Positions 14,351-41,444 of a stretch of DNA of 46,743 nt are shown piece by piece. The DNA is taken from positions 1 to 46,743 of the forward strand of contig JBFMBJ010000002.1 of assembly GCA_040755235.1 (NCBI GenBank). Reading direction: 5' to 3'. Position 1 is the stretch's first letter. Each line of letters starts with the position of its first letter. The DNA is from Candidatus Omnitrophota bacterium (GTDB taxonomy: Bacteria > Omnitrophota > Gorgyraeia > Gygaellales > JBFMBJ01). The notes beneath the pieces are model-generated. The model worked only from the letters and a program-made list of their open reading frames with translations. It was not told the origin of the DNA and made no database searches. Position numbers and translations under genes: made by a program.

Positions 14351-14353
14351 ATT

Positions 14354-20531: not shown

Positions 20532-21353
20532 TTAATGGATAACTGCAAAATAAATATTGCTGTCAGGATCCTTTATTAAGCTATCTACCTTAAAATCTGC
20601 CTCCTCTACCTCATTGATAAATTCCTCATTAGAATTAAACAGGTGATGAAATTCATTTGACGGCAATATCCTATCGCCTTTTTGGTATCTAAAATTTCCG
20701 AAGGAAAGAAAAGCTATTACTTTTCTTAAAATAAAAAATCTATTATTATCTTTTGGTCCCATCCCCCAAAAACTTATATATAATTTTGCACCTTCCTTTA
20801 AAGCCTTCTTCACCTCTTTAAGAAAACTTATTCTCCTTTCTCTTGTAGGTATTGAGCCGTACATACAGGAGGTAATCATAGAAAGGTCGAAAGAAAACTG
20901 CTTAAAAAAAAGGTTTGTGAAATCGCCAATTACAAATTTCATCCTGATTTCAGAACGTAGTGAATTTTCCATTGCCATATCGACCATCTCTTTAACAAAA
21001 TCAACGCCAATAACATCTATTCCAAGTTTAGCCAAAGCAATTGCCTCCCTACCGCCACCGCAGCCTAAAATCAAACATTTGTTTTTTTTGAAATTATATT
21101 TTTCTATAAATTCTTTTTCTGCATCATATAAGCCATCGCTAATTTTGTCCACCCCAAATATTTTAAGTTTTCTATCTTCGCCATAACAAGCCCTATTATA
21201 TTTAATCAAGCTCTCCGGAGTTAAAACCACAGCAAACAATGATTTCAGGAAACCTTTTAGCTTCGATAAAAAAGTATCCAGCAGAGAAATCGGTAATTTC
21301 AATAAATCCAATATCCTTATAAACAAATTTAAAAGTTTAATTTTTAGTCCCAT
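20532..21353 (-). CDS. Class I SAM-dependent methyltransferase
   Basis: 273 aa. Motif I is ILGCGGGREAIALA, followed by GVDF. Confidence 0.7.
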   Translation of the reverse strand: MGLKIKLLNLFIRILDLLKLPISLLDTFLSKLKGFLKSLFAVVLTPESLIKYNRACYGEDRKLKIFGVDKISDGLYDAEKEFIEKYNFKKNKCLILGCGGGREAIALAKLGIDVIGVDFVKEMVDMAMENSLRSEIRMKFVIGDFTNLFFKQFSFDLSMITSCMYGSIPTRERRISFLKEVKKALKEGAKLYISFWGMGPKDNNRFFILRKVIAFLSFGNFRYQKGDRILPSNEFHHLFNSNEEFINEVEEADFKVDSLIKDPDSNIYFAVIH

Positions 21354-21439: not shown

Positions 21440-21724
21440 ATGGAAAAACTAAAACAAAAATATAATTTAAAGTACGAAAATATTGTCTGGGCAAAGGTAG
21501 GCAGAAAATATTTAGTAGTCTTGCTAAATAAAAAAGATATAAAAGACTCACTTTTCACAACAAATAAGTGTAGTATTGATATATTAGATTGGCTACTGAC
21601 TAAAAAATCTTCCGAGAAAATTATTAATCTTTTATCCAAAAAATACTCTTTAAGTCATAGACGCGCAAAAACTGACTTTTTAAAATTTATTGCTAAATTA
21701 GAAAGCCTTAAGGTTATAGATTAA
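21440..21724 (+). CDS. PqqD-family protein (RRE-type peptide chaperone)
   Basis: 94 aa. Size and pattern (VGRKYLVVLLNKK...FTTNKCSIDILDWLL...IINLLSKKYSLS...DFLKFIAKLESLKVI) fit the PqqD fold. Confidence 0.65.
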   Translation: MEKLKQKYNLKYENIVWAKVGRKYLVVLLNKKDIKDSLFTTNKCSIDILDWLLTKKSSEKIINLLSKKYSLSHRRAKTDFLKFIAKLESLKVID

Positions 21725-21731
21725 TCTAAAA

Positions 21732-22640
21732 ATGTATAGTAAAGATATTTATCTACATAATATAAAATTAAATTTTAATTGTAATAACTATAAAATCTTT
21801 AAAGATTTTTGCGAGCAGCTTAATTTTCCCAGATTTAGGCAATATAAAAAATATATCAAAGTCAAAATTAATCTTTCTTTAGTTGCTGCTATATCTACCG
21901 ATGAACGAGCTGATATTTTTAATACAGAAGCAAAAAATTTTAATCTAAATTGCTGGATAAAAAATATATCTTTAAAACTCGAGCGTAAAACTAATACAAT
22001 TAACGCGCAATTAATTTATCCAACTCACCTATCAATAGATAATTTGCTGCATCTAATAGTAATCGCCCCGTTAAGAAGAATTTTACAAAAATATAATATA
22101 TTTTTACTCCATGCAGGAGTGGTTTCAAAGAATGATAAAACCATATTGCTCTTTGCTGGCCCGGGCAGAGGAAAAAGCACGCTAACAACTTCCTTCCTCT
22201 TGGCTGGTTACGACGTTCTTTCAGATGAGTTCGCTATCTATAAGGACAAAAAGGTATTTAGCTTTCCCATAAAAATAAAATTAGATAGAAAAACTCTTCT
22301 TTGTCTAAAATGGAACAGAACACTAAGGCCGTGTTTCTACGTTAAGGATTTTTCCTCTTCCCAAGTTATTGAATTTAGCAAGCCCCTGTTGAGTTTATTC
22401 CTGCGCCAGGCAACAGAAAGTTTGAGAATTCCTCGCTTCAGTATGCTTGATCCTCTGGATGCCTTTAGATTTTTAGCACGTGACAAAGTAAATAGCCTTA
22501 CTTACGAAAAAGACCCATTGTTACGCAGACGCCAGCTTGATGCATTAGCTAATATAGCCCAGAAAACAAGATGCTATACCATAATTTATAATTTAAAACA
22601 TATAAAACAGATTCCCAAGATAGTTCAAGAAATTATCTAA
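21732..22640 (+). CDS. HPr-kinase-related P-loop protein
   Basis: 302 aa. LLHAGVVSKNDKTILLFAGPGRGKSTLTTSFLLAGYDVLSDEF parallels the HprK/P catalytic core (H-G...G.SG.GKS...G..L..D). Confidence 0.65.
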   Translation: MYSKDIYLHNIKLNFNCNNYKIFKDFCEQLNFPRFRQYKKYIKVKINLSLVAAISTDERADIFNTEAKNFNLNCWIKNISLKLERKTNTINAQLIYPTHLSIDNLLHLIVIAPLRRILQKYNIFLLHAGVVSKNDKTILLFAGPGRGKSTLTTSFLLAGYDVLSDEFAIYKDKKVFSFPIKIKLDRKTLLCLKWNRTLRPCFYVKDFSSSQVIEFSKPLLSLFLRQATESLRIPRFSMLDPLDAFRFLARDKVNSLTYEKDPLLRRRQLDALANIAQKTRCYTIIYNLKHIKQIPKIVQEII

Positions 22641-22651: not shown

Positions 22652-24313
22652 CTAATACTTCCTGAAAATTAAATCGAGAAAGGTCTCAACGGTTTTAAAT
22701 AGGAATGCTGACAACCTCAAAAAATAGGCTTTCATTAGAACAAAACCACTACTTTTTAACTTGAATCTTTCTTTCATATAATTTTTTGGAGGAAATATAA
22801 TTTTTAATAAGTATCTTAAGTAGACAATAAATCTTTTAAGTCTTAGACTAAATTTGCCACAGAAAAGAACTAAAATAAATTCAAACGGAATTTTTGCCCT
22901 AAATGTAGGACCTTCTTTGTTAAGCGAGATGGCATCCCTATCCCAAAAAAACTCAAATAATTTCGCTCTGATAAAATTTGGCTTTATCTTTAATAATATT
23001 TCCTCTGGCAAATTTGCACCCATTAATTTAGAGGTCAAATGCAGACTGTAATAGACTAAAGTAGCTAAGTCGCACCTTTTAATAAGATTTAAAAAATCTT
23101 CCCAATTAAGTGAATAGCGAAATTTATTGATTATTTCTTTTATATCATAAAACCAGATAAAACCGCTGAAATTATGTCTGGCAAGGTTAACACATGCTAA
23201 TAGAAGCGTATTCTCTAAAGAAGGAAAATATACTTTCAAATTATTTAAATTTATAGGCCTGGCATTTTGCCAGAAACAATAGTCAAAATAAGGGAAATCT
23301 ATCGCCCATATATTTGATTTTAATTCTAATCTTATGCCATCCATATGAAAATCTATATGATTATCTAAATATCTTAAAGGCAGTTTATTATAATTTCTTT
23401 CTAAAGCCCTCATCCTAAAGCCTAAGGCAAATATAGTGTGGCAAGCCCTAAGCCAATCCTCTTCTTTTACTAATAAATCAATATCTCCCATCCATCTATA
23501 GGAGCTATCGCGATAAAGCTCTATACCTACCTGGGCACCCTTTAAAATAAGTACATCAATTTTTTGTCTGTTAAATTCATTTAATAATCTATAGAGGGCA
23601 TCCCTCACCCTTACATCATGCACAAGTTGTAATCTATTCATATTCTCTAATTCGTCCTGGATCTTTTCTGGCAAAAATCCTATAATGCCTAAATCAGTTA
23701 AGGTCTTTATGAAAATATGGCTAAAAAAATTGAACTTAACTCTATTTGCTATATACTGCCAATCAAGATTTTCTCTAAATAAATTAGATAGCTCTAATCT
23801 TTCGCTATCGCTAAGAGCGTTTTTTATGGATAATCTTAAGATTTTTCTCTCATTAACAAAATCATATTTTTTATAAGTAATTTTTCTAAATAAGACTCTT
23901 GGATAAGAAATAAAAAAATAGAAAAGATTTTTAAATCTGCCTCTCGAGGTATCAAAAGATAATATTTTCTCATCTCGCTTAAGTTTAGTAACCCTGCCGA
24001 CTATATTATCTTCTGCGACAGGCTTGTCAAACTCAAGAAAGTTATCAGCCTTTAGAATAAAAAATTCTTTTTTGCCAATTCTTCTCTTTAAAATAAACCT
24101 ATGGACGATAAAATGGCTGTTATGTCGATAAACCACTAAGTCTCCAAAGCTAATTTTCCTTTCCTTCTCAAAGAATACTTCATCGCCTTCCTTAAGTAGC
24201 GGCATCATTGATTGTCCTTTATATTTAAGAAAAGGCTTTCTGCCCTCTTGAACTGAATCTATATAAAGCTCTTTTGCTAATATTTCTATTTTCTGATGGT
24301 CTGTTTTTATCAT
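22652..24313 (-). CDS. Second fusion of an S26 (SipW/ER-type) peptidase-like domain to an NTP_transf_5-like nucleotidyltransferase
   Basis: 553 aa, a paralogue of 17022-18740. Peptidase boxes are KGQSMMP, VHRFI and LKADN, followed by WMGDIDLLVKEED. Confidence 0.65.
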   Translation of the reverse strand: MIKTDHQKIEILAKELYIDSVQEGRKPFLKYKGQSMMPLLKEGDEVFFEKERKISFGDLVVYRHNSHFIVHRFILKRRIGKKEFFILKADNFLEFDKPVAEDNIVGRVTKLKRDEKILSFDTSRGRFKNLFYFFISYPRVLFRKITYKKYDFVNERKILRLSIKNALSDSERLELSNLFRENLDWQYIANRVKFNFFSHIFIKTLTDLGIIGFLPEKIQDELENMNRLQLVHDVRVRDALYRLLNEFNRQKIDVLILKGAQVGIELYRDSSYRWMGDIDLLVKEEDWLRACHTIFALGFRMRALERNYNKLPLRYLDNHIDFHMDGIRLELKSNIWAIDFPYFDYCFWQNARPINLNNLKVYFPSLENTLLLACVNLARHNFSGFIWFYDIKEIINKFRYSLNWEDFLNLIKRCDLATLVYYSLHLTSKLMGANLPEEILLKIKPNFIRAKLFEFFWDRDAISLNKEGPTFRAKIPFEFILVLFCGKFSLRLKRFIVYLRYLLKIIFPPKNYMKERFKLKSSGFVLMKAYFLRLSAFLFKTVETFLDLIFRKY

Positions 24314-25483
24314 CTAACTAAATATTGGAAAATAGATGCTATCAATATCTGAAATATTATCTTTTAGTCTCTGGTAGCAATTTTGGCAAGAAACAAATAA
24401 ATCGCCTTTCTTAAAACTTTCTCTTAATTTCTGATAACACTGTCCGTTCCAGATTTCTTTAAATGTCTGCTTGGCTACATTGCCCATCAACAGCCCTCTT
24501 CTATTAGGCGCGCAACAAGGAAAGACATCGCCGTTTAGTTCAATAAAACTTGAAGACCAAAGAAATCTACAGATAGGCTCTGATAAAGAACTTACATCTT
24601 TTGTAATTGACTCTGACTTATTTGAAAATAAAGGTGGAAAATCATAAGTATCTAAGCCATATTTATCAATTAGATCTCTTGATTCTATTAAATATCTATT
24701 AGCCAATTCCTTATGATATATAAGAGACTCACTACGCATTCTCTCATTAAACACAATCATATGGCATAACCCTATTGCATCGGCTTTCAAATTATGAGCC
24801 AACTTTATAAACTCAGGCAATTCTTCGATATTGCTACGCATCAAGGTAAGCCAGAACACTAAGCGCGGCTTTCTGTCATTATCTAAACTATCTTGGTGAG
24901 AATTGAATCTTTTTATGTTACTTAAGACAGCCTTAAAATCAGCACCTTTGCGTATGCGCTCATATGTTCTTTTAGTAGCCCCGTCAAAAGACACAATTAA
25001 AGTTGAAAGATTATTAAGTAGACTTAATAAGGTCTTTCCTTTTGGTAGAAGTGTTGCATTAGTAAATATCACCAATTTAACTTTATAATTTTCAATTAAT
25101 TCTAACTCCTTTATAAAGTGCGGGTTCATAAATGGTTCTCCTGCAATGCTCAAGGTCAAAGAAAATAAATAAGGGAATGTTTCGCGGCAAATTTTTTCAA
25201 AAAGCTCAAAATCCATAAGTGTCTTATTCCTGTGATGAGCATATAATTTAACAAGGTCTCTCGTTAAAGGAAATCTTTTCAAGAATGGCTTTGGACCTTT
25301 GTCAAAGAAATTTCTGGTGCGATGGCACATTATGCAGTTCAAATTACACCTCGTAGTATCAGAAATTGTCAAAGACAAAGGCATGCTCTCGCAAGTAGGG
25401 CTTTTAACTTCTGTCTCACTTAAATATAGTTGCCGATTCTTAATCTTTAAAGCTATATCGTAATCTAATTGATTAATTTGCAT
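24314..25483 (-). CDS. Radical SAM enzyme with a Cys-rich (SPASM/twitch-like) C-terminus
   Basis: 389 aa. The cluster motif is TTRCNLNCIMCH. C-terminal cysteines lie in CRFLW...GDVFPCC...VSCQNCY. Confidence 0.75.
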   Translation of the reverse strand: MQINQLDYDIALKIKNRQLYLSETEVKSPTCESMPLSLTISDTTRCNLNCIMCHRTRNFFDKGPKPFLKRFPLTRDLVKLYAHHRNKTLMDFELFEKICRETFPYLFSLTLSIAGEPFMNPHFIKELELIENYKVKLVIFTNATLLPKGKTLLSLLNNLSTLIVSFDGATKRTYERIRKGADFKAVLSNIKRFNSHQDSLDNDRKPRLVFWLTLMRSNIEELPEFIKLAHNLKADAIGLCHMIVFNERMRSESLIYHKELANRYLIESRDLIDKYGLDTYDFPPLFSNKSESITKDVSSLSEPICRFLWSSSFIELNGDVFPCCAPNRRGLLMGNVAKQTFKEIWNGQCYQKLRESFKKGDLFVSCQNCYQRLKDNISDIDSIYFPIFS

Positions 25484-26648
25484 TGTTTAAAATCTTTTGA
25501 TAAATTTTTAAATATTCTTTAGATAAATTTTTCCAACTAAAATTTCCTGCCTCAATTTTTTTCCTTGCATTTTCTCCTAAGGTCTTTCTTAAATCCTCAT
25601 CAATTAAAAGTCTTTTTATACCTTCTGAAAGCGCTTTATCACTGCAGGGCTTAACTAATAAGCCAGTTACCCCGTCTTCGATTACCTCTGGCACTCCTCC
25701 TACCTTAGTAGCAACCACAGCCTTTCCGGCTGCCATTGCTTCTAAATTTACTATGCCGAAAGGTTCGATTCGCGAAGGCATAACAAAAAAAAGGCAATTT
25801 TTAAAAAGGTTAACTGTCTCGCTTCTATTAACCAAACCAAAGAACATCACTTTTCCATCAAGATTTAGTAATTCTTTAAATTCTCTATATATTGGCATTG
25901 CCGGACCATCTCCGGCTATTACTAAATTTATATTAAAACCGCTATCTAGGACATCTTTAAAAGCAAGGAGTGCCAAATCGAAACCTTTATAGGGAGAATC
26001 TAGTCTACCTAAACAAAGTATATATGGAAAATTTATTAGTGCTGAACCATTTTGGTCAAACTCTCTTAGATCTATACCATTATGTATAACAGTTGATTTT
26101 GTCTTTAGTTCTGGGGCTGTCTCTATTGCGCTATTAAGGAAATCTCTGGAGCAGGCAGTTATAAAACTTGCCCTCTTTAGAATTAGTCTGTAAATAATTT
26201 TAACAATAAATGCGCGGTTTCCTTTTAAGAAAGGAATGACATGATCGTGAAAACCCTGCAAAGTAATTATAAACTTTAATGGCAGGAAAAAAGAAAGTAT
26301 ATAGAGACAAAAAGCATTTAAACCTTCGTAATGAACATTTATGATTTGAATTTTATTCTTTTTTAATATCTTACTTAATTCTATTAGCGTCTTTGGCAGG
26401 CTAAAGGAAAGTTTTACAAGGTCAATTAAGCATTTAAATCCCTTTCCGGGCAATATTAAAAATGGAACATATAATCTATACACCTCTATTCCATCAACAA
26501 CCTCAAATGGCTTATATTTCTTTACTGTTAATACAACGATTATTGCCTTGTGAAGTTGGTTAGTAAATTCCTTAGCTAAGCCCCTAACTGTCTGTTCACT
26601 ACCGCCTACATCAGGTAAATAAGAATGTGTAACTATTGCTATATTCAT
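25473..26648 (-). CDS. GT4 glycosyltransferase
   Basis: 391 aa. N-terminal IAIVTHSYLPDVGGSE and the EX7E region EPFGIVNLEAMAAGKAVVATKVGGVPEVI. Confidence 0.85.
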   Translation of the reverse strand: MNIAIVTHSYLPDVGGSEQTVRGLAKEFTNQLHKAIIVVLTVKKYKPFEVVDGIEVYRLYVPFLILPGKGFKCLIDLVKLSFSLPKTLIELSKILKKNKIQIINVHYEGLNAFCLYILSFFLPLKFIITLQGFHDHVIPFLKGNRAFIVKIIYRLILKRASFITACSRDFLNSAIETAPELKTKSTVIHNGIDLREFDQNGSALINFPYILCLGRLDSPYKGFDLALLAFKDVLDSGFNINLVIAGDGPAMPIYREFKELLNLDGKVMFFGLVNRSETVNLFKNCLFFVMPSRIEPFGIVNLEAMAAGKAVVATKVGGVPEVIEDGVTGLLVKPCSDKALSEGIKRLLIDEDLRKTLGENARKKIEAGNFSWKNLSKEYLKIYQKILNNAN

Positions 26649-26657
26649 AGGATAATT

Positions 26658-27932
26658 TTATTTTGCCGGCGCTAATGCAAAATTGACAGAATGCGAAGAA
26701 ACCAGGCTTAAAATTTCTTCATTAGAAATGTTTTTAATTGGTCGGAATTCCTCATCACTGTAAAAGTAATAATAAGACTCCCACGCTCCGGCGCAAAATG
26801 TCTTTAATCTGCATTCTAGGCATTTTACAGAAAGCCGTAGCCCAGAACTTTTATATCTATGATATAGGCATCCCCCGTCGGCGTGAGAAAAATTAGTAGC
26901 TAAAACTTCGTATCTGCGGTTTATGAAATATTTCCAGTATCGGCTTTTAAATAAACATAAAGGAAACGAAGTAATTCTTACTTTTAAATTTTTTTCAATA
27001 AGGACATCTAAGGCATCCTGAATATATATAGCTGTATCTTTCAGCTTAACTCCGAGAGTTTGGATATTCTTGGCAGCATTGCCTACGTATACCAAAGATT
27101 CAAAAGCAACTCCACCAATGCCTTCGCCAGCTAAGAATTGTGCTGTGGCTTTTAAGTCTTTATAATTTTTTCTATTTATTATAAGTATAATATCAAAATT
27201 CTTAAAGCCAAGCGCCATTAAGTTCCTTATCCCACTAACAGTTTCTTTAAAGCTTCCCTGTCTCTGTGTAAGGGAATCGTGTATTTGAGCAATATGGCTG
27301 TTTAGGCAAACAATCATACCATCAAGCCCAGAGTCTATTATTTCTTTGGCAAAATTTCTATAAGAGAATCTTCTCCCATTTGTCAATAGCCAAGCAGAAA
27401 GATTTCTTTTCTTGGAGAACTCTATTAGATGCTCCAGTCCTTTGAATAAGGTGGGTTCTCCGCCTCCAAAGTGAATCTCTCTGTATTCGCTACTTAAATC
27501 TTCTATCATATGCTCTAACTCATTTAGGGAAAAATTCTTTCTCTTTGTTTTTTCTCCCCCAAAGCAGTACTCGCAATTATTATTGCAATAATAATTTGTA
27601 AAACAGAAAATCTTTCCCAGATAATGCCTGCCCTCGTTAAGGACGCCTTTATCCAAGCTACGCCTCAAGGAATATCCGATCATATCTTGATATGAATATT
27701 CTGGCTGAAAATCTAATTTAACGCTGGAATCTAACATTTTTTTTCCTAAGCAGTCGCCTTGTAGAGCTGTTTTAAGGAAATCACAACGTAGCGACTCTCT
27801 ATCTGAATAATCATCGATAAATGTGGCCTTGGTTCCGTTTGAGAATCTAATCCTATTATCATATCCTACTGTAAAAGATATGTTCGAATCTGGATGGCAA
27901 TTCATATATTTTTGCTTAAGATTAATGGGCAT
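26658..27932 (-). CDS. Radical SAM/SPASM-like enzyme with a ~110-aa N-terminal extension
   Basis: 424 aa. The cluster motif is YYCNNNCEYCF, followed by GGGEPTL, and the C-terminus has KCLECRLKTFCAGAW. It overlaps the PqqD gene upstream by 11 nt. Confidence 0.75.
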   Translation of the reverse strand: MPINLKQKYMNCHPDSNISFTVGYDNRIRFSNGTKATFIDDYSDRESLRCDFLKTALQGDCLGKKMLDSSVKLDFQPEYSYQDMIGYSLRRSLDKGVLNEGRHYLGKIFCFTNYYCNNNCEYCFGGEKTKRKNFSLNELEHMIEDLSSEYREIHFGGGEPTLFKGLEHLIEFSKKRNLSAWLLTNGRRFSYRNFAKEIIDSGLDGMIVCLNSHIAQIHDSLTQRQGSFKETVSGIRNLMALGFKNFDIILIINRKNYKDLKATAQFLAGEGIGGVAFESLVYVGNAAKNIQTLGVKLKDTAIYIQDALDVLIEKNLKVRITSFPLCLFKSRYWKYFINRRYEVLATNFSHADGGCLYHRYKSSGLRLSVKCLECRLKTFCAGAWESYYYFYSDEEFRPIKNISNEEILSLVSSHSVNFALAPAK

Positions 27933-28218
27933 AATTCATTTTTAAGATGAGCTCCTCTTTCTCCAAATCACAAAGCAGAGAAATAGCATCATTTTTCAAT
28001 TCCTCAGCGCCTATTTCTAATTTAGAACCCAAATATTCAATGATTTCTCCCAAGCTTCTCTGTTGTTCAATAAATTGCCATATCAAAGTTCCTGTCTTGT
28101 TTAGGCTATAATAAAAGCCTCTTTCTAAATGCAAAACAACTGCTTCCTGATTTATCAGACGATAACTAACCTTTGCTTTATTAATTTTAAAGCAAGTATC
28201 AATCTCTATCTTTGGCAC
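27922..28218 (-). CDS. PqqD-family RRE protein
   Basis: 98 aa. GTG start with an AAGGAGA SD 7 nt upstream. The PqqD pattern is classic: QEAVVLHLERGFYYSLNKTGTLIWQFIEQQRSLGEIIEYL...DAISLLCDLEKEELI. Confidence 0.8.
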   Translation of the reverse strand: MPKIEIDTCFKINKAKVSYRLINQEAVVLHLERGFYYSLNKTGTLIWQFIEQQRSLGEIIEYLGSKLEIGAEELKNDAISLLCDLEKEELILKMNYAH

Positions 28219-28259
28219 AGCTTATTCTCCTTGGTGTTATATTGTTTATAACAAATTTT

Positions 28260-28376
28260 CTAAGTTACATTACCCCCTACAGCAATATCTAAGAGTTTAT
28301 ATTTTATAAGCTTGGGCTTTTCGTATTTCTCGGGGCTTTTTCTTACCTCCTTACAATTCTTCCTATCCTTTTTCAT
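28260..28376 (-). CDS. 38-aa candidate precursor peptide, absent from the ORF track
   Basis: My own translation of the minus strand: ATG at 28376, with a GGAGG SD (ccaGGAGGcataacATG) upstream. The product is MKKDRKNCKEVRKSPEKYEKPKLIKYKLLDIAVGGNVT, ending at a TAG at 28260-28262. It lies 41 nt upstream of the PqqD gene. Confidence 0.55.
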   Translation of the reverse strand: MKKDRKNCKEVRKSPEKYEKPKLIKYKLLDIAVGGNVT

Positions 28377-28394
28377 GTTATGCCTCCTGGTTAA

Positions 28395-28943
28395 TCAGGC
28401 GTCCCTAACCATCACTAACTGTGACGAAGGATACTCAACACCATCCACCTGAAATCTTTCTTTTTCATTAGTCGCCTTAAATCCGAGTTTTTCATATAAA
28501 CTTATAGCTGGCTTATTAGTTTCTAAAGCATCTAAAAATATCGCTAAATTTTCACTTTTAGCTAAAAAGATTGCTTTTCTTAGCAACCTCTCGCCTATGC
28601 CCTTAGAACGAAACTCTTTTAAGACTGCCACGCCCTTAACCTGCCAAGCCTTTAAATTCTGCTGTGTAGATTTTTTTAAAAGAATGATGCCGACAATTCT
28701 ATGGCTCTCCCTATGCCAAGCAACAAAACATATATCTGTATCGCTATTTATTGGAAAGTCTATCCTTTTATCTCTCTCTACTGGATTATCTTTAAAAAAT
28801 TCATTCCTAAATTCAGTTATAAAATCAAAATGCTTTTTTCTATCAGTTGGCTCTATAAGGCGCAAATCCACATAATAATAAGAAAAAATCAGCTTTCTTA
28901 TTTTTCGCAAGATTCTTGTATTATTCAAGATTCCCTTAAGCAT
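28395..28943 (-). CDS. GNAT N-acetyltransferase
   Basis: 182 aa. Motif A is VAVLKEFRSKGIGERLLRKAI. Confidence 0.8.
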   Translation of the reverse strand: MLKGILNNTRILRKIRKLIFSYYYVDLRLIEPTDRKKHFDFITEFRNEFFKDNPVERDKRIDFPINSDTDICFVAWHRESHRIVGIILLKKSTQQNLKAWQVKGVAVLKEFRSKGIGERLLRKAIFLAKSENLAIFLDALETNKPAISLYEKLGFKATNEKERFQVDGVEYPSSQLVMVRDA

Positions 28944-29976
28944 CTACTAAAGATTCCTCAAGTAGCTTGCCGTCTCTTCTTAATCCTGACTTTGTTAATT
29001 TGCAGAGCCATCGAGGCGAAGCTAAAAAATCACCCTGCTCCAGCCAAGCCAAACCCGGCTCCCAACAACAATAAGCGCTAAGAGGGCATTCTGAACACTT
29101 GAGATCTTTAAAATCAATCTCTCTTAAAACTTTTATTGCTTTTGAATTTAACCAAATATCTTCTAAGGAATTCTCTCTCAAATTGCCAAGCTTTATCCTT
29201 AAGTTGCAGTGGGCAAATACCTCAGCCTGCGCTGATATATAGCAATCCTTTCTACCCAATGAAAGAAAATGAAAATATTTATTAAGCCGGCTAACCCTGC
29301 TGACTTGCTCTTCTAATTTGAGCTCTCTGACTCTCTCTCTAATCTGTCTTTTTGTGACTCTATATTTTAACGGACCCCTAAACCCATCCCAGCGAGGAGT
29401 AATATAGTAATCCGGCTTTATTGGCCATGCTCGAGTTTTTGCTATTTCCTTTAATTCTCTTAATTCGTCAAAGTTTTGTCTGAAAACTAAAAAGGATATG
29501 GCAAATTCAACATTATTTGCTTCTAATGAACCTATTGACTTAATAGTTTTTTTAAAAGATCCTCGAACTCTTGTTATTGAATCGTGCGTGTCTTCTTTTG
29601 CGCCATATAGACTGATACGAATATTAACCGGATTAAATTCTATAATTCTCCGAGCCAAACTGTCTGTTATCAATGTTCCATTTGTTAATATGGTGACTGC
29701 AAATCCTAGACGGCAAGCAAATTCTAAAATATCTAATAAATCTTTCCTTAAGAAAACTTCACCTCCGGTAAAACCCACTGCCATAGCGCCTAATGCCTTT
29801 AGCTGTGTTAAGATTTCTTTTATTTCAATTAAACTTAACTCATTAGAGGTGTCTTTATTTTCAAAACAATGAAGACAGCTAAGGTTGCATCTATAGGTTA
29901 ATGCAATCTGGGCTTTCAAGAGTGCATTATTTTTTTTTAATTTACAAAGTAAGTCTAAATAAGTTTTCTCTTGCAT
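28936..29976 (-). CDS. Radical SAM/SPASM enzyme (paralogue set)
   Basis: 346 aa. The cluster motif is ALTYRCNLSCLHCF, followed by GFTGGEVFLR, and the C-terminus has CSECPLSAYCCW. Confidence 0.8.
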   Translation of the reverse strand: MQEKTYLDLLCKLKKNNALLKAQIALTYRCNLSCLHCFENKDTSNELSLIEIKEILTQLKALGAMAVGFTGGEVFLRKDLLDILEFACRLGFAVTILTNGTLITDSLARRIIEFNPVNIRISLYGAKEDTHDSITRVRGSFKKTIKSIGSLEANNVEFAISFLVFRQNFDELRELKEIAKTRAWPIKPDYYITPRWDGFRGPLKYRVTKRQIRERVRELKLEEQVSRVSRLNKYFHFLSLGRKDCYISAQAEVFAHCNLRIKLGNLRENSLEDIWLNSKAIKVLREIDFKDLKCSECPLSAYCCWEPGLAWLEQGDFLASPRWLCKLTKSGLRRDGKLLEESLVDA

Positions 29977-29988: not shown

Positions 29989-31278
29989 TTAATTATTTAC
30001 AAAAGAATCAGAGCTATAGGCAGAGATATTGTAATATTTCCTTCTGTCAAAATCCTTATCCTTAACGCCTTCATAAAGAAAATCAAGAAATCTACCCATA
30101 AACTTATGCCTTTTAGCTTGAGCTAAACGATAAAGCGGTCTATTATCGATTTTTCTCTTTAGCGTGTCTAAGATAATTTTTTCTAATAGATTGCCAATCC
30201 TTTCAAAAGAAAAATTATTTTTTACATGCTTAATACAGTTATTAGACATAGTTAAGAGTTTCTTTCTATCTGCTAAAAGTTCTATTAGAAAACTTAACCC
30301 TTTTTGCCAGTCAAATGTTACGCCACTGTCAGTCAATATAGTGGGGATACGATACCCGGTTTTACCATGAATAACTGTATCTTTTAAACCACCCCAGTCT
30401 GTACAGATAACCGGTGTAGCACAGGCCATTGCCTCAACCTGGGCATAGCCAAAATTCTCTCCGTAATCAGTTGTTAAATTTATCAAAATATCTGCAGTTG
30501 AATATAAAAATGTGAGTTCTTCTCTCTTTAACTGGCCAGTGAATATTACCTTATCAGAAATACCGTAGTTTCTACATTTATGCTTAATAAATTCAAGATA
30601 ATCTTTATCCTGAACAAAACTGATCCCAGAATAAGGTTTATTATCTTCTCGCCCTGCGAGGCAAAGCCGGCTCTGCGGTACTATTTTTAAAAGCTCTTTA
30701 AATGTTTTAATTAGAAAATGTACATTTTTTGCAAAGCTGATTCTTCCGGCATAAAGTATAAGCGGGCTGCTTGCGGGGATATTAAATCTTTTTCTCATAA
30801 CCGCTTGCCCTGCATATCCTCTAGGTTTAAACATATTAGTATCCAAAGGCCAAGGTAAATAATAAGCCATATCCTTAAATATACCAGCGCATAAATTAGA
30901 CCAGATTTTAAGGTCTGAGTTAGATGAACAGAGGATAGAATTATTTCCCAAAAGCCGGTGATAAAACTTGGCAAAAAAATTATAGGGATTAGTCAAGTAT
31001 CCAAGCGCAAAAAATATTATTGGAGTTGAATTATTCGTATTTTTGAATATCTTACGGCCTGGTAATTCCAAGACTATATCGCAGCAAGAGATAAATCTAT
31101 TGAACAATACCTGTTGATTTCCTAAATTGTCTGAGCTATCAACATAAAAATATCTAGGACCAAATCTACGCTCTGCAATTTTTATTAGGTTTCTACAAAG
31201 CATTCTGCAGCTTATGCTCTTTAAGTCAGTTAAATTTCTATGGGTAATTATTCCCAATTTTATCTTTTTAATGGTCAT
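29989..31278 (-). CDS. GT4-like glycosyltransferase
   Basis: 429 aa. The EX7E region is GENFGYAQVEAMACATPVICTDWGGLKDTVIHGKTGY. Confidence 0.75.
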   Translation of the reverse strand: MTIKKIKLGIITHRNLTDLKSISCRMLCRNLIKIAERRFGPRYFYVDSSDNLGNQQVLFNRFISCCDIVLELPGRKIFKNTNNSTPIIFFALGYLTNPYNFFAKFYHRLLGNNSILCSSNSDLKIWSNLCAGIFKDMAYYLPWPLDTNMFKPRGYAGQAVMRKRFNIPASSPLILYAGRISFAKNVHFLIKTFKELLKIVPQSRLCLAGREDNKPYSGISFVQDKDYLEFIKHKCRNYGISDKVIFTGQLKREELTFLYSTADILINLTTDYGENFGYAQVEAMACATPVICTDWGGLKDTVIHGKTGYRIPTILTDSGVTFDWQKGLSFLIELLADRKKLLTMSNNCIKHVKNNFSFERIGNLLEKIILDTLKRKIDNRPLYRLAQAKRHKFMGRFLDFLYEGVKDKDFDRRKYYNISAYSSDSFVNN

Positions 31279-31280: not shown

Positions 31281-32621
31281 CTAATTATACAAGATAAGAA
31301 CCTTAAACTCGGTTGGGTCAAAGCCATCTATATTTCTTCTCGCGCTTACAAATTGTAAATTTTTGACTCGGGCTAGGAGTGAGCCTAACTCTTTTTTAAG
31401 TAACTTTTTAGTATATAATTCTTTTTTATTTTTTTTCCCTTTTGAGCTTAGAAATTTTTTCAAGAGAATCTTACTTGTTAGAGAAAGTAAAGGAATATCA
31501 CGGATTTTAAGAAAATTTGATAAGTCCAATACTTCTACCTTAAAACCAATTCTCTGGGAAATTGATTTGATAATACTGAAATCTATTGAATATTCAAGGT
31601 GGCCTTCTAACCTAACTATTCTCGTCCTATAATCAAAACTCCCATATTCAACTAAAACCGCTAAACCATTTTTTCTTAAGATTCTTCTTATCTCTTCCAA
31701 AAAACTAACTATGCCTAAAGGAAAGATAAAATTAGTAAATTTAGCGACTGGGAAATCAGCAATGCATTCATTGGCAATAATAATATCTAAACTATTTGAC
31801 TGAAACGGCAGACGAATAGCATTTGCCTGAACAAAGTTTAAGCAGCTATAAAAACGCTTATTTAATTTTTGCTGGGCGTTCAATAATTTAGCTGATAAAT
31901 CCAAAAGAATATAAGAAAAAGATGATTTTTTAAATCTTTTTTTCATATTTCTTATTGCGTTAAAAGCCAAGTAGCCCAAACCGCCTCCTATCTCTGCAAT
32001 TTTTATTCCATTAAAAAATCTTTTTCTCGCCAAGATGGCTTTAATAAATCTTTCACCATATGAGATATTGCCAAGAACTATTGTTTTTTCTCTTAAAAGA
32101 TGAGAAAAGGTCTTTTCTTCTTTTTCAAACTGCTTATCTGGCTCCTTGATAGCGTGTTTATGATAATTATAACTGTCATAGATATTCTTCGTCTCTAAAA
32201 GCGCCTTTTTCTCCCTGAAAATATTGGCTGCGATATGCATTAATTTTGACTCATTTCTAACCTTTGAGTTTAAACTAGAAAAAGGTGCATCTAAGAGCTC
32301 AATTAACTGAACCTGTTTAGAATTCCATTTTCTCAAAGTTTTTAAAAAAATATTTTTAAGAACGCCTTTTTTATCAAAACCCTTCGAAATCTTCTCAAAT
32401 ATCTCATTAGAATTCAAATTCCCTGTTAAACTTTTCCAGATATCAACCTCAACGCCTTTAAGTCTATGGTTCGCTACATTTAGTCTCTTTCCATTTCTTT
32501 TAAAATAATAAATTTTTGGCTGGCTATCTTCATGTATATGAAGGTGAGGCTGGCAAGATTTCGGATACGCCTTATTTATATTTGGTTTCCTTGTACTTGG
32601 TTTTAGGGTTAAATCTTTCAT
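31281..32621 (-). CDS. SAM-dependent methyltransferase with an N-terminal extension of ~110 aa
   Basis: 446 aa. Motif I is IAEIGGGLGYLAFN, followed by LLDLS. The N-terminal region (YYFKRNGKRLNVANHRLKGVEVDIWKSLTGNLNSNEIFEKISKGF) looks PqqD/RRE-like by eye. Confidence 0.65.
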   Translation of the reverse strand: MKDLTLKPSTRKPNINKAYPKSCQPHLHIHEDSQPKIYYFKRNGKRLNVANHRLKGVEVDIWKSLTGNLNSNEIFEKISKGFDKKGVLKNIFLKTLRKWNSKQVQLIELLDAPFSSLNSKVRNESKLMHIAANIFREKKALLETKNIYDSYNYHKHAIKEPDKQFEKEEKTFSHLLREKTIVLGNISYGERFIKAILARKRFFNGIKIAEIGGGLGYLAFNAIRNMKKRFKKSSFSYILLDLSAKLLNAQQKLNKRFYSCLNFVQANAIRLPFQSNSLDIIIANECIADFPVAKFTNFIFPLGIVSFLEEIRRILRKNGLAVLVEYGSFDYRTRIVRLEGHLEYSIDFSIIKSISQRIGFKVEVLDLSNFLKIRDIPLLSLTSKILLKKFLSSKGKKNKKELYTKKLLKKELGSLLARVKNLQFVSARRNIDGFDPTEFKVLILYN

Positions 32622-32627: not shown

Positions 32628-33632
32628 TTACTGACTAATACTTTGAAACTTTAAATACTTTTCTTCGGCAAAACTTTTACAAACCGGATCGCAACTTGTA
32701 AATGTCTTATTAAAAGCCCAACTCCTTGCCGGGCACCACGGACAAAATTGCCTCAGATGACAAGAATTGCATTTAAAATTTTTATCTGGTTTTAAATCCT
32801 GGATTATTTTCTTAAGTCTTTGCCAACAGCGGGCTAATGAAGTTTCTAAAATATCGAAATGAGGATAATCTATGTGTAGACACATCTTAAGAGTGCCAAA
32901 GGGGCTAATAATTAAACTATTAGTTCCTACGCCGCAGGAAAATAATCTACCATTATGCCTGCTTGTTAAAGGAGAAACAGAATTATGCTCCTTAAGACCA
33001 TCAAAAGATGTACCAGATAAAGAAGGCATAAGCAAATTGCAAATTCTCAAATTGCCTCCATAGTCAGCAGAAAATTTTTTTAATGAATTAATTTCGCCTT
33101 TGTTTTCATTTAAGTAACAAGTCTTAAAATCGAGATGGATTTTGTTTTTGCGTAAGTACTCAATAGCAGAAAAAGTTTTATTGAAAAACCCCCTCGCCCC
33201 GGTAATATGGTCAAAATTAGTTTTACTTAAAGAATTAATATTAACATCCAGACGGCTTGGCACAATCCTACCTAATTCCCGAGCTTTTTTTCTATCAACC
33301 AACGAGGCATTAGTATGTATGGAAATATTAAACCCTTTTCTTTTCGCATACCATAATATGTCAAAAATATCCTTTCTTAAGAAAACTTCTCCACCTGTAA
33401 AGCCCAAGTAAAAACAGCCCAAGTCCGACAATTCATCAAGAATAAAAAATATCTTTTTTGCATTTAATTGCCTCTGGGAAGATTCCTCTCTGTACTGCGC
33501 TGGCACATAGCAATAAACGCAATTAAAATTACATTCGTAGGTAAGTTCAAACATCGCCTGTAAAGGAAATTGCTTAACCTTAGCAGAATCCGCTAAACGC
33601 TCTCGAAAGATGTTATAGTGTTGAGACCGCAT
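32628..33632 (-). CDS. Radical SAM/SPASM enzyme (paralogue set)
   Basis: 334 aa. The cluster motif is ELTYECNFNCVYCY, followed by GFTGGEVFLR, then CGVG...GTLKMCL...CNSCHLRQFCPWCPA. Confidence 0.85.
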   Translation of the reverse strand: MRSQHYNIFRERLADSAKVKQFPLQAMFELTYECNFNCVYCYVPAQYREESSQRQLNAKKIFFILDELSDLGCFYLGFTGGEVFLRKDIFDILWYAKRKGFNISIHTNASLVDRKKARELGRIVPSRLDVNINSLSKTNFDHITGARGFFNKTFSAIEYLRKNKIHLDFKTCYLNENKGEINSLKKFSADYGGNLRICNLLMPSLSGTSFDGLKEHNSVSPLTSRHNGRLFSCGVGTNSLIISPFGTLKMCLHIDYPHFDILETSLARCWQRLKKIIQDLKPDKNFKCNSCHLRQFCPWCPARSWAFNKTFTSCDPVCKSFAEEKYLKFQSISQ

Positions 33633-33665: not shown

Positions 33666-34043
33666 TTATATTGATAACCTATCATTAGTAAATTTAATTA
33701 GGGAATTAATTTCTTTTGGCAATTTTTGTAATTCTCCAGATATATATTTATACTCGCCCTCTTTTAATAGGCCCCTTATCTTTGCTTTATTTGCCCAATC
33801 AAAAGATTCATCAAGTGAGCCATAACTATAACGATAAAAATTGACCTTATCCTTTTTAAAATATCTTCCAAATCCTTCAGCGATATTAGAAGATATAGAA
33901 TCCACTGCCCTTACCAACTGCCTGCCAACAGTATCCTTTGCAAAATAATCCCATTTAATCACAACATCCCAAACGTAATTGGACAAATTAAAAGCAATTT
34001 TATAAGCACTAATATCATTTAATTCTAAATATCTTTTTGTCAT
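33666..34043 (-). CDS. Four-helix-bundle protein of the 23S rRNA intervening-sequence protein family
   Basis: 125 aa. AEGFGRYFKKDKVNFYRYSYGSLDES matches the family's EG.gR...f..fl..a.GS..E signature. Confidence 0.75.
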   Translation of the reverse strand: MTKRYLELNDISAYKIAFNLSNYVWDVVIKWDYFAKDTVGRQLVRAVDSISSNIAEGFGRYFKKDKVNFYRYSYGSLDESFDWANKAKIRGLLKEGEYKYISGELQKLPKEINSLIKFTNDRLSI

Positions 34044-34045: not shown

Positions 34046-34096
34046 TAATTTAACGGTTTATTTTAGCAATTTAACAGTTTGACAATTTAACAGTTT
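34046..34096. repeat. Three direct copies of (T/C)AATTTAAC(G/A)GTT(T)
   Basis: TAATTTAACGGTT lies at 34046-34058. CAATTTAACAGTTT lies at 34068-34081 and again at 34083-34096. The third copy overlaps the stop of the rSAM gene at 34087. Confidence 0.7.
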
Positions 34097-35163
34097 AACT
34101 TTGCTCTTTCCTGTGACATTGCCTTGGCAAACTGGCAAAAATATGGCGTGGGAGATTCTTCATTGCCAGTTTCTAAAAATGCTATTGCCGGGCAATTAAT
34201 GCAGTTCGACCTCAAAGAGCATTTCCTGCACTCAGATTTAGTTCTAAAATGTTGCTTTAGAACCTGTGGCAGTATTTCATAAAAGCCCTCTTTAAAACTC
34301 GTTGTCCTTAAATCAACGCTGAATTTATCCGAGAGCATGCAGAATTTAAGCCTGCCAAATGGGTCAATAATAAATTCTTCCATCCAGCTATTACATTGAT
34401 AGAGAAAGCCTCTTCCTCTCTTTAAACTACTTAAACTGCTGTGTAAATTTCTTTTATATTCCTGCCATATATCCAAATCTTCTTTAGCAAGGTCTGTTAA
34501 TTCTCTGAAGGAAAGCCTTAAATTACTTAACGCATTATCAAGGTTTAACCTGGGATAAAGTATCGGGTCGTATTTGAAATAATACTTATCTTTTCCTTTT
34601 CCTAAAAACTTTTCAGTAAATTCCTTTATTTTTACAATCTCATTTTTATTCTGTTTAAGCGCATTTGCCTTTAAAATGAGAGGCAATTTTCTTTCTTTTA
34701 TTTTTTTAATATTTTCCAGGGTTTTCGCAAATGAGCCGCTTACTTGGGTAACTGCCTCATATGTTGCCTGCGTAATAGCGTTTAGGGTAATCTCGATAGA
34801 AAACGGTGGGAATTTCTCAAGATAATCTAAAATTTCATCTGTGAATAAAAGGCCATTACTAAATATGGTTATAATAAAACCTTTCTTCTTAACATAGGAA
34901 TAAATTTCCAAAAAATCATTCCTTATTAATGGCTCGCCTCCGCTAAATACAAGCGAGAGGCAGCCTTCTTTAGAGAGCTGGTTAAAGATATTTCTAAATT
35001 CTTCAGATGATAATTCTTTCCCTTTCTCTTCGCAGCCTTTGCAATAACAATGTATACAATTTAGATTACATCTATAGGTAAGCTCAATATGGCCTTTCCA
35101 GGGATACTGGTCTTTTTTTCTAAACAGACTTGTAAAAAAATGCGCTGAGCTATGCGTTTTCAT
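34087..35163 (-). CDS. Radical SAM/SPASM enzyme (paralogue set)
   Basis: 358 aa. The cluster motif is ELTYRCNLNCIHCY, followed by VFSGGEPLIR, then CNSW...GRLKFCM...CRKCSLRSNCINCPA. Confidence 0.85.
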   Translation of the reverse strand: MKTHSSAHFFTSLFRKKDQYPWKGHIELTYRCNLNCIHCYCKGCEEKGKELSSEEFRNIFNQLSKEGCLSLVFSGGEPLIRNDFLEIYSYVKKKGFIITIFSNGLLFTDEILDYLEKFPPFSIEITLNAITQATYEAVTQVSGSFAKTLENIKKIKERKLPLILKANALKQNKNEIVKIKEFTEKFLGKGKDKYYFKYDPILYPRLNLDNALSNLRLSFRELTDLAKEDLDIWQEYKRNLHSSLSSLKRGRGFLYQCNSWMEEFIIDPFGRLKFCMLSDKFSVDLRTTSFKEGFYEILPQVLKQHFRTKSECRKCSLRSNCINCPAIAFLETGNEESPTPYFCQFAKAMSQERAKLNC

Positions 35164-35179: not shown

Positions 35180-35374
35180 TTAAGAAGAAGGGGTGTTGGG
35201 AGTTTTGGAACATGAAAATGACAGGTCGCCTTTACTTGTTCCGCAATAACTATAACTCTTCCTGCCAGTTAAAGTTCCGTATCCTGTCGTAATACAATTA
35301 CAAGTTATAACTGCCTGCTCAGGGTTGAGTTTTATGCGGGTGATTTCAGGTTCAAATTTTGGCTTTGTTGGCAT
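35180..35374 (-). CDS. Candidate RiPP precursor peptide A2 (64 aa)
   Basis: MPTKPKFEPEITRIKLNPEQAVITCNCITTGYGTLTGRKSYSYCGTSKGDLSFSCSKTPNTPSS. An AGGAGG SD lies 6 nt upstream. It is a paralogue of 36006-36200 and is flanked by maturase-type genes. Confidence 0.8.
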   Translation of the reverse strand: MPTKPKFEPEITRIKLNPEQAVITCNCITTGYGTLTGRKSYSYCGTSKGDLSFSCSKTPNTPSS

Positions 35375-35390: not shown

Positions 35391-35972
35391 CTAATTACCG
35401 AACTCTTTTAAGGCTAAATTTTTTGTTACCAAGTCATAAGTAATGACTCTCTGATATCTACTACAGTTATTATTACTAAAGTTGTTTTTTAATGAATTTA
35501 TATTTAAAAAAGGATATTTTTTAATTTCGTTTATTTGTCCGAGAATTAAATTATTTACTACGGTATTATTAATTAGATTATCGTTTGTATATAAATTCAA
35601 CAGTTCAATATCATAAATAGCTGCATCAGCAATAATCGTATGTCCTTGTTTAAGTATTGTTTTCCTTGTATCATTAATAGCGCTTTCTAATTTTTTAAGA
35701 GTACTCTCGTCAGTTACCTGGCCAAAAAAAACATTCGACACATCGCCGGTAAAAAACTCTGAAAAACAGGTTCCCTCAATACAATAAGAAACTATCTTTT
35801 GCCTGCCATCTTTAACTCTTTCTGCTATGAAAAAATTTGAATCCCTTATTTGTATGCCTCCTATATATAAACGAATCTTGTCCCTTTTTTGGTCACACCC
35901 TTCTGAAAATAAGTAAGCAGCATTAAATAAAAAAATAACACTTATTATCCCTATCCACATTTTCTTGTTCAT
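35391..35972 (-). CDS. Secreted or membrane-anchored protein of unknown function
   Basis: 193 aa. The N-terminal hydrophobic segment is MNKKMWIGIISVIFLFNAAYLF. An AAGGAG SD is present. I recognise no motif in it. Confidence 0.6.
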   Translation of the reverse strand: MNKKMWIGIISVIFLFNAAYLFSEGCDQKRDKIRLYIGGIQIRDSNFFIAERVKDGRQKIVSYCIEGTCFSEFFTGDVSNVFFGQVTDESTLKKLESAINDTRKTILKQGHTIIADAAIYDIELLNLYTNDNLINNTVVNNLILGQINEIKKYPFLNINSLKNNFSNNNCSRYQRVITYDLVTKNLALKEFGN

Positions 35973-35994: not shown

Positions 35995-36012
35995 GTCTTA
36001 ATGACTTAAGAC
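35995..36012 (-). other. 7-bp stem / 4-nt loop hairpin overlapping the stop codon of precursor A1
   Basis: GTCTTAA-TGAC-TTAAGAC on the plus strand; the stems are exact reverse complements. The stem is A/T-rich, so stability is modest. Confidence 0.4.
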
Positions 36013-36200
36013 GATGCTGTGGCAGCAACTTTCGAACATGTAAATGACAGGTCGCCTTTAGCTGTCTGACAAAGTGTATAAGATCTGCTAAGGGTATAAG
36101 TTCCATAGCCTGTCGTAATACAATTACAAGTTATGACTGCCTGCTCAGGGTTGAGTTTTATGCGGGTGATTTCAGGTTCAAATTTTGGCTTTGTTGGCAT
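36006..36200 (-). CDS. Candidate RiPP precursor peptide A1 (64 aa)
   Basis: MPTKPKFEPEITRIKLNPEQAVITCNCITTGYGTYTLSRSYTLCQTAKGDLSFTCSKVAATASS. I moved the start from 36221 to the ATG at 36200. The reasons are a GGGGGTG SD 6 nt upstream and a start and length identical to paralogue A2. Confidence 0.8.
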   Translation of the reverse strand: MPTKPKFEPEITRIKLNPEQAVITCNCITTGYGTYTLSRSYTLCQTAKGDLSFTCSKVAATASS

Positions 36201-41406: not shown

Positions 41407-41444
41407 TGCAAGATTCGCTAAAAGCCATAAATAAGGGAGAGGAT

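Follow-up and report, generated by a model that had tools for sequence, protein, structure and literature searches.

The leaders of lasso peptide precursors carry a YxxPxL handle, located at positions -17 to -12 (PMC10368454). A similar handle, YxxPx[V/L], is also present in the linear polyphosphorylated peptides (LPPs; Popov et al., Nat Commun 2026, PMC13381572), which are described from Bacillota only and whose final product and function are unknown. The LPP precursors are conserved at the N-terminus and vary at the C-terminus, their clusters often lie within capsule loci, and radical S-adenosylmethionine (SAM) enzymes are not mentioned for them (PMC13381572). In the crystal structures of LPP leaders bound to the RiPP recognition element (RRE; RiPP, a peptide made by the ribosome and modified after translation), the Tyr is hydrogen-bonded in a first hydrophobic pocket, the Pro is sandwiched, the Val/Leu occupies a second pocket and the next residues extend the RRE beta-sheet; the change of the leader Tyr or Pro to Ala gave weaker RRE binding, and the kinase LppK needed a Ser in the core (PMC13381572). 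The LPPs are further marked by the polyphosphorylation of a core Ser and by a signal peptidase I-like cleavage that depends on the RRE. In this work, we describe an open reading frame (ORF) of 38 aa with a leader of this type, located in a stretch of 46,743 nucleotides (hereafter the window, meaning the whole stretch) of contig JBFMBJ010000002.1 from a Candidatus Omnitrophota bacterium. The ORF probably encodes the second, short precursor type of a RiPP cluster of about 26 kb that is rich in radical SAM genes, the first type being represented by twin precursors of 64 aa.

The ORF begins with an ATG at 28376-28374, ends with a TAG stop at 28260-28262 and is translated as MKKDRKNCKEVRKSPEKYEKPKLIKYKLLDIAVGGNVT. 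It fills most of a gap of 176 nt (28219-28394) between a GNAT acetyltransferase gene, whose stop is at 28397-28395, and the gene of a PqqD-family protein (PqqD2), whose GTG start is at 28218. The initial annotation, made from the sequence alone, had reported a minus-strand ORF of 38 aa with a GGAGG Shine-Dalgarno (SD) sequence in this gap, and this description is exact. The features of the gene and its presumed partner are as follows.

28260-28376, minus strand: 38-aa precursor-peptide gene, including the TAG (translation and family hidden Markov model, HMM)
28383-28387, minus strand: SD sequence GGAGG (28387-28383 in the direction of reading), 6 nt ahead of the ATG
28308-28325, minus strand: YEKPKL, codons Y18-L23, putative RRE-binding motif of the lasso/LPP type [Y/W]xxPx[L/V] (21-member alignment)
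28263-28277, minus strand: GGNVT, codons G34-T38, short variable tail and putative core, with uncertain boundary (21-member alignment)
27922-28218, minus strand: PqqD2, PqqD-family RRE, presumed cognate leader-binding chaperone (PF05402, 3.7e-15)

When the gap was shuffled 200,000 times, the same strand acquired an ORF of 38 aa or more with an ATG start in 2.3% of the shuffles, and one with an SD-like 4-mer in addition in 0.4%. Just three ORFs of 20-80 aa in the whole 46.7-kb window have GGAGG 4-9 nt ahead of the ATG, namely the 38-aa ORF, one of the twin precursors and a ferredoxin-like ORF. The latter, of 59 aa (42907-43086, minus strand), lies beyond the cluster and has two CxxCxxC-type motifs. 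Neither an Rfam match nor a terminator-like site was found near the 38-aa ORF, and no site stood out in a promoter scan (4 promoter-like sites, with 6.0 expected from shuffles). The peptide had no NCBIfam match at E≤0.01. The ORFs of its relatives are called genes; that of the window is apparently uncalled, since neither of the two protein searches returned it.

The peptide belongs to a family of about 21 members, in which Tyr18 and Pro21 are invariant. These were gathered by synteny, by profile searches led by a 47-aa member, and by a scan of JGI metagenomes at the DNA level for the pattern YEKPxLxKYK. A collection of 5.8 billion proteins contained only four that are 38-53% identical, near full length, to the HxsC-like radical SAM enzyme encoded next to PqqD2 (26658-27932). 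The nearest of them (L001, 53% identity) lies on a contig cut within the PqqD gene, ahead of any peptide position. In L002/L003, L004/L005 and L087, the gene order is about that of the window gene by gene, the SurA, AAA_22 and HD flanks included, with a called ORF of 46-47 aa between the genes for a radical SAM/SPASM enzyme and PqqD. L120 presents full synteny with the window; L006 has a 53-aa ORF between its radical SAM and PqqD genes; and L127 has a 44-aa ORF ahead of PqqD, followed by an unidentified cut ORF. The peptides of the syntenic relatives are MKKENERGKDKKGSKPYEKPALTKYKKISEWIRSGTTTPVSSPIGPG, MRKENGRSKDKKGNRDYEKPALTKYKKISEWIRSGTSDPIQQGCGG and MQKKDNKKTKGKKNKTYIPPKIKIYDIKELLMSWDNELFGLPTGGPSSPVGPV. 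Wherever a related locus extends far enough for it to be seen, a small ORF adjoins a PqqD gene. The initial annotation had proposed a search for conserved small ORFs in syntenic loci, and in these the position, the frame and the peptide sequence are all conserved.

The profile searches contributed P0032-P0035, P0037, P0038, P0040 and P0042, and the DNA-pattern scan yielded L120, L107, L098 and L124, plus L100, L110, L114 and L121. L098 and L124 combine genes for a radical SAM/SPASM enzyme, the peptide, an HprK-like protein, an ABC protein and NTP_transf_5. L107 combines PqqD, a fusion of a family 2 glycosyltransferase (GT2) with PqqD, the peptide, radical SAM/SPASM, ABC, NTP_transf_5 and HprK-like genes. 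In L128 are found a B12-radical SAM enzyme, two peptides, a ScmC/HprK-like protein, a radical SAM enzyme, a B2-like peptidase, PqqD and NTP_transf_5. The variants closest to the window peptide are those of L100 (MKKDEKKEMKKATYEKPVLIKYKKLTDVVGGASPNGS), L110, L114 and L121; second copies occur in tandem in these four loci and in L128, the pairs being at 2008-2272 in L100, 5592-5868 in L110, 1839-2112 in L114 and 40-317 in L121. The contigs of these four, of 2-8 kb, have a higher GC content (0.52-0.56) and no detected PqqD, radical SAM or kinase gene; in L110 and L121 the peptides are neighbours of a beta-propeller protein (PD40) and of a 'CoA enzyme activase' (DUF2229). A search with the PqqD2 protein found two relatives only, L129 and L130. 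L130 has a short-form family peptide, ending ...KKLIAH, on the 3' side of its PqqD gene, and no family peptide was seen in L129. In a scan of genome contigs with an alignment of the radical SAM enzyme, the matches listed had about 26% identity and were mostly from Actinomycetota, with generic radical SAM patterns that are uninformative on the family.

The membership of the window ORF was also recovered with HMMs. In an independent test, an HMM of the three synteny-found peptides alone placed it at the top of 1140 stop-to-stop segments (E=3.3e-4, runner-up 0.22), and a family HMM of 13 members matched it with E=1.6e-8. A GGAGG-type SD sequence is strong in all 12 family ORFs examined (that of the window and 11 from other loci), and the spacer from the peptide stop to the PqqD start is 41 nt in the window against about 45 nt in the homologs.

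Codons 17-36 (YEKP...SG[TS]) of L002, L004 and L087 presented proportions of nonsynonymous differences (pN) of 0.02-0.06 and of synonymous differences (pS) of 0.74-0.96, the synonymous sites of the leader codons being saturated, and in the last nine codons the nonsynonymous and synonymous rates (dN and dS) were about equal in two of the three pairwise comparisons. In the 21-member alignment, Y18 and P21 are invariant, and the positions K20, L23 and Y26 almost so; conservation continues without gaps to about G35, and beyond it the sequences are unalignable. The leader is under strong purifying selection and the tail is free to change, which is the classic pattern of RiPP precursors, and the assignment to this type follows from the constant leader and the variable C-terminal tail. 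Synteny, selection and the HMM match show that the 38-aa ORF is a genuine, conserved and unannotated small precursor-type gene adjoining an RRE, as had been supposed initially, and the supposition of a tiny region after the leader agrees with a conserved block that runs to about G35 of 38 residues.

The tail of the window peptide has 3-8 residues against 10-20 in most relatives, and it is the second shortest of the family after that of L130. By alignment it is NVT, after a block ending ...AVGG; by an LPP-like spacing, with Tyr at -16, it is GGNVT; and by a lasso-like spacing from the KLTD-type position it is IAVGGNVT. The tail of L100 has ...VVGG in common with the window and continues with ASPNGS. 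The normal spacer to the PqqD start indicates that no recent nonsense mutation produced the short tail. The Gly-Gly near the end had been compared to double-glycine leaders; this idea was abandoned, as only 2 of the 21 members have GG at that column and the ABC transporter of the cluster lacks a C39 peptidase domain.

The conserved leader motif, YEKPxLxKY, fits the [Y/W]xxPx[L/V] handle of lasso-type RREs, and its informative part is the YxxPxL of lasso/LPP type. Among solved structures, PqqD2 best matched lasso B1 proteins, namely TbiB1 (3.2e-7), PbaB1/9x90 (5.3e-6) and TfuB1 (0.013), and its best NCBIfam model was lasso_PqqD_Bac, with 48 bits for a cut-off of 80. The other two RREs of the cluster matched the lasso B1 structures weakly (PqqD1, E=0.1) or not at all (PqqD3). 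We infer that PqqD2 is the partner of the 38-aa peptide because adjacency and similarity to lasso B1 proteins both point there; with three RREs and two precursor types in the cluster, it is on these two observations that the pairing stands. The peptide comprises Lys-rich residues 1-17, the handle Y18-E-K-P21-K-L23, a strand-like segment IKYKLLDIAV and a tail of at most eight residues, most likely GGNVT or NVT.

The cluster extends from about 15351 to 41181, mainly on the minus strand, and includes nine radical SAM enzymes. Its genes and borders, with domains called by Pfam and NCBIfam scans of the window ORFs, are listed below.

41406-42920, plus strand: SurA-like gene, cluster border
40864-41181, minus strand: PqqD1
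39778-40854, minus strand: radical SAM enzyme
38892-39806, minus strand: weak HprK-B-like protein
37282-38895, minus strand: B12-radical SAM enzyme
36221-37261, minus strand: radical SAM enzyme
36006-36200, minus strand: 64-aa precursor
35391-35972, minus strand: 193-aa protein, no family match
35180-35374, minus strand: second 64-aa precursor
34087-35163, minus strand: radical SAM enzyme
33666-34043, minus strand: '23S rRNA IVP' (intervening sequence protein) gene
32628-33632, minus strand: radical SAM enzyme
31281-32621, minus strand: methyltransferase
29989-31278, minus strand: glycosyltransferase
28936-29976, minus strand: radical SAM/SPASM enzyme (true SPASM match)
28395-28943, minus strand: GNAT acetyltransferase, between the radical SAM/SPASM and peptide genes
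26658-27932, minus strand: HxsC-like radical SAM enzyme; N-terminal domain of about 100 aa, conserved; auxiliary motif of four Cys; 11-nt overlap with the PqqD2 gene
25473-26648, minus strand: family 4 glycosyltransferase (GT4; Pfam)
24314-25483, minus strand: radical SAM/SPASM enzyme (PF13186, 2.1e-15, and PF04055)
22652-24313, minus strand: signal peptidase I-like (SpI-like, S24/S26) domain fused to NTP_transf_5, candidate leader peptidase (PF00717 and PF14907; TIGR02228 sigpep_I_arch, 2.3e-11)
21732-22640, plus strand: HprK-related kinase (TIGR04352 HprK_rel_A, 7.5e-16, 58 bits, cut-off 200)
21440-21724, plus strand: PqqD3 (PF05402, 1.5e-5), in a divergent pair with the kinase
20532-21353, minus strand: methyltransferase
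18724-20511, minus strand: MsbA-type ABC exporter, 595 aa (ABC_membrane at residues 41-303, ABC_tran at 370-518)
17022-18740, minus strand: second SpI-like/NTP_transf_5 fusion (Pfam and motifs)
15351-17012, minus strand: B12-radical SAM enzyme
13226-15196: AAA_22 and HD genes, cluster border on the other side

From the peptide to 22652 the genes are uninterrupted ORFs that abut or overlap, so this part looks like one transcription unit. Just past the AAA_22 and HD genes there is a polysaccharide export and assembly locus (1050-13229, minus strand) with Wza-like, Wzc-like, Wzy-like, flippase and deacetylase genes, which also holds two methyltransferase, B12-radical SAM, GT2 and PMT_2 genes. The GC content of the window is low (0.35), and the hosts of such clusters are apparently Gram-negative, given their SurA and heptosyltransferase genes. 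In comparison with L002/L004, the window cluster has three extra genes, for the 193-aa ORF between the duplicated precursors (35391-35972), the 23S rRNA IVP and the GNAT protein, which are signs of recent rearrangement; no GNAT match was found in the other loci compared, and this insertion occurs in the window only.

The initial annotation had placed PqqD, a radical SAM/SPASM enzyme and a GT4 next to the ORF. The PqqD, the radical SAM and the GT4 are confirmed; the adjoining radical SAM enzyme, however, has no Pfam SPASM match, and the SPASM matches proper belong to 24314-25483 and 28936-29976. It presents four invariant C-terminal Cys residues instead, C326 and then CX2CX5C (371/374/380), and its best NCBIfam model is HxsC, with 129.9 bits for a cut-off of 267.9. 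Its orthologs come after the peptide and PqqD in L002, L004, L087 and L120. Residues 1-105 of this enzyme and of its four relatives form a conserved N-terminal domain without a Pfam match, in which C12, F20, N26, F30, G33, I39-D40, Y42, D44-R45 and F52 are conserved; P0003 has an extra N-terminal extension of about 70 aa.

In L002 and L004, GT4 and the radical SAM/SPASM enzyme that follows it are a single fusion of 774-775 aa. L107 encodes, directly upstream of the family peptide, a 406-aa protein (1642-2862) with a GT2 and a C-terminal PqqD/RRE domain, which looks like a leader-guided peptide glycosyltransferase. From these fusions we argue that the peptide family is a target of glycosylation and of radical chemistry. 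Both SpI-like domains of the window retain the GxSMxP, HR and KxDN motifs, which fit the Ser/His/Asp residues mutated in LppS (PMC13381572). In the first SpI-like/NTP_transf_5 fusion of L002 (13597-13986) and L004 (13562-13951), the box is GSCMxP, against GxSMxP in the window (23924-24313) and in the second fusions, with a Cys aligned to the presumed nucleophilic Ser. The pair of PqqD3 and the HprK-related kinase has orthologs in L002 and L004.

The long precursors, of 64-74 aa, are found in the window at 36006-36200 and 35180-35374 (minus strand), in L002 at 4761-4958, in L004 at 3329-3529 and in L120 at 190-414. Their leader, xKPKFxPE[IV]TR[IV]xLNPEQA[VL], is followed by a Cys-rich core, and they always end in Ser (ASS, PSS, VSS, VSS and AGS). 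They had no NCBIfam model at E≤1, so that NCBIfam has no model for either the short or the long precursors. In paeninodin, the HprK-type kinase phosphorylates a C-terminal Ser; given this target and the terminal Ser of the long precursors, the kinases here may act on them and not on the short one. A KPK(F/L) element had been noticed in both precursor types and suggested as a common RRE motif. The element is indeed common to the 38-aa peptide and the twin precursors in the window, but it does not hold as a general motif: the short peptides differ in the residue that follows Pro (A/K/V/R/M/I/T/Q/L/P), and the long precursors of the relatives have EKPKFKPEI, GKMKFKPEV (L004, with KMKF) and RRPKFKPVI, where Tyr is absent and Pro is not invariant. 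What the two types share is at most a Pro-x-hydrophobic element.

Several observations weigh against the reading of the 38-aa ORF as the second, short precursor of this cluster. There are three RREs for two precursor types. The members fetched by the YEKPxLxKYK DNA pattern carry the motif by construction, which does not apply to those from synteny or profile searches. The peptides closest to that of the window, in L100, L110, L114 and L121, have no PqqD or radical SAM gene on their contigs of 2-8 kb; the enzymes may lie at a distance from these precursors, or the role of the family may be a different one. Finally, the tails of most relatives exceed that of the window by about nine or more residues, and the window tail may not suffice as a normal core; it also lacks the Ser on which HprK-type kinases depended in the work on LPPs. 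The same short tail without Ser would be expected if the window copy were decayed or leader-only, binding the RRE unproductively as a relic or as a leader that, in trans or by competition, modulates the enzymes of the twin 64-aa precursors, and the rearranged cluster, where GNAT and IVP genes are inserted and the long precursor is duplicated, also agrees with decay. We consider this unlikely: the ATG and the strong SD sequence are intact, the spacer to PqqD is normal and leaves no room for a recent nonsense mutation, all family-invariant and near-invariant leader positions are retained, and the downstream genes (22652-28218) are uninterrupted, abutting or overlapping. Independent short forms, in L100 (VGGASPNGS) and L130, suggest that short tails are tolerated. 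Still less probable to us is a specific function of the 3-8 tail residues (e.g. Asn-Val-Thr), in which the HxsC-like radical SAM enzyme and the GT4-radical SAM/SPASM pair would build a small glycosylated product or a peptide-anchored glycan primer, released by the SpI-type peptidase to the polysaccharide machinery. If true, a minimal glyco-conjugate would be made here by a leader-guided route in the style of RiPPs, with a combination of precursor family and enzymes undescribed before.

A mycofactocin-like arrangement, as initially proposed, would make the peptide a sacrificial scaffold like those of mycofactocin or PQQ: the radical SAM enzyme would cross-link its last residues, and these, once glycosylated, would be set free as a small redox cofactor or molecule. 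The order of peptide, PqqD, radical SAM and glycosyltransferase and the very short tail, together with the even earlier stop of L130 (...KKLIAH), are compatible with it, but the rest of the evidence makes it very improbable. The MftC model TIGR03962 gave 49.5 bits for a cut-off of 265; the peptide has no match to MftA (TIGR03969), and the NCBIfam models matched by PqqD2 are those for lasso, GeoRSP, PQQ and WgkC PqqD only, without MftB. The C-terminus of MftA is invariant (...GVY), and that of the window peptide is GGNVT. The glycosyltransferase is a GT4 instead of the GT2 of MftF, and no creatininase-type or FMN-dehydrogenase/oxidase domain (MftD- and MftE-type) was found among the scanned cluster ORFs. 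To our knowledge, cofactor precursors keep a constant core, and tails that are wholly different between relatives, with dN close to dS, therefore argue against such a role. The leader peptidase domain, the exporter and the polysaccharide locus nearby suggest that the product is secreted or located at the surface. As for a chance ORF or a non-coding element such as an attenuator or other RNA, the short length, the AT-rich genome and the uncalled gene could be cited for it; the shuffle probability of 0.4%, the protein-level conservation with saturated synonymous leader sites, the HMM match (E=1.6e-8) and the absence of an Rfam match or terminator-like site nearby reduce its probability to almost nothing, and the leader-codon selection and the HMM match effectively refute it.

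For the 38-aa ORF as second, short precursor, we infer from the genes present the chemistry, the cleavage site, the product, the role of the tiny tail and the choice among the three RREs. PqqD2 (27922-28218) would grip the leader as lasso B1 proteins and LppB do, with the Tyr in one hydrophobic pocket, the Pro kinked over an aromatic residue, the Leu in a second pocket and the next residues extending the beta-sheet. The HxsC-like radical SAM enzyme, encoded with an overlap of 11 nt with the RRE gene, would be presented with the tail by the RRE, and the tail would go on to the GT4 and the radical SAM/SPASM enzyme, which are one fused protein in relatives. The leader would then be cut off by the SpI-like domain fused to NTP_transf_5, and the product exported by the MsbA-type ABC pump.

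These results add an uncalled gene to the map and define an uncurated family with a YEKPxLxKY leader, which has no Pfam or NCBIfam model. In uncultured bacteria that are apparently Gram-negative, the family appears to tie leader recognition of the lasso/LPP type to the chemistry of radical SAM enzymes and glycosyltransferases. Clusters in which two types of precursor and three RREs occur with two SpI-NTP-transferase fusions, nine radical SAM enzymes and an exopolysaccharide neighbour would broaden the LPP family, and they provide a natural case in which to examine how multiple leaders are allotted to multiple RREs within one pathway. The very short tail of the window copy may serve as a probe of the minimal core accepted by the machinery.

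Comparisons with the known systems place the locus among them. With mycofactocin, it shares the generic order of small peptide, PqqD-type RRE, radical SAM and glycosyltransferase within a cluster, and it differs by its exporter and leader peptidase domain. With the HXS system (PMC13128918), it has in common that HxsC is the best NCBIfam family of the radical SAM enzyme at 26658-27932; the HXS system was rejected, as HxsC is below its cut-off, there is no HxS-repeat peptide and the context is different, and the other Hxs-system models had no match except a rare HxsC4 variant, far below its cut-off. With the lasso pairs TbiA-TbiB1, FusA/TfuB1 and PbaA-PbaB1, it shares the YxxPxL motif (Y18, P21 and L23) and a discrete B1-like PqqD RRE. 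A canonical lasso peptide was also rejected, since neither a lasso cyclase (C) nor a B2 transglutaminase-type protease was found among the scanned window ORFs, and unlike the lasso cores, that of the window has no ring-forming Gly1 ... Asp/Glu7-9 pattern. In L128 there is a B2-like Transglut_core3 protein, without a cyclase among the called genes.

The differences from the LPPs are in the precursor, the enzymes and the hosts. The LPP precursor consensus, YxxPxVLxHQxIxFETxxS, has only YxxPxL in common with the window peptide, the remainder of which is IKYKLLDIAVGG; beyond YxxPxL, the family has KYKK[LI]xx-hydrophobic where the LPPs have VLxHQxIxFETxxS, and the window tail has no Ser. Beyond anything among the LPP core genes, the window also encodes nine radical SAM enzymes, two GT4-type transferases and methyltransferases, and its precursors are of two types, with three RREs. 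The hosts of window-type clusters are low-GC, apparently Gram-negative and uncultured, whereas the LPPs are from Bacillota. On the other hand, the precursor resembles those of the LPPs in its YxxPx[V/L] leader at the N-terminus and in its hypervariable C-terminal end, and all five LPP core components, namely the SpI-like peptidase, the discrete RRE, the HprK-like kinase, the NTP transferase and the MsbA-like exporter, have counterparts in the window, although SpI is fused there to NTP_transf_5 and the kinase, at 58 bits for TIGR04352, is below the cut-off of 200. The HprK-like kinase and the NTP transferase are also the accessory set of paeninodin-type clusters. The position beside a polysaccharide locus (1050-13229) is LPP-like and echoes the capsule-locus setting of paeninodin. 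Then, as judged from its genes, we propose that the cluster is LPP-like, augmented with radical SAM enzymes and glycosyltransferases and served by a peptide family with a leader of lasso/LPP type, and that its closest published system is the LPP/paeninodin-type machinery.

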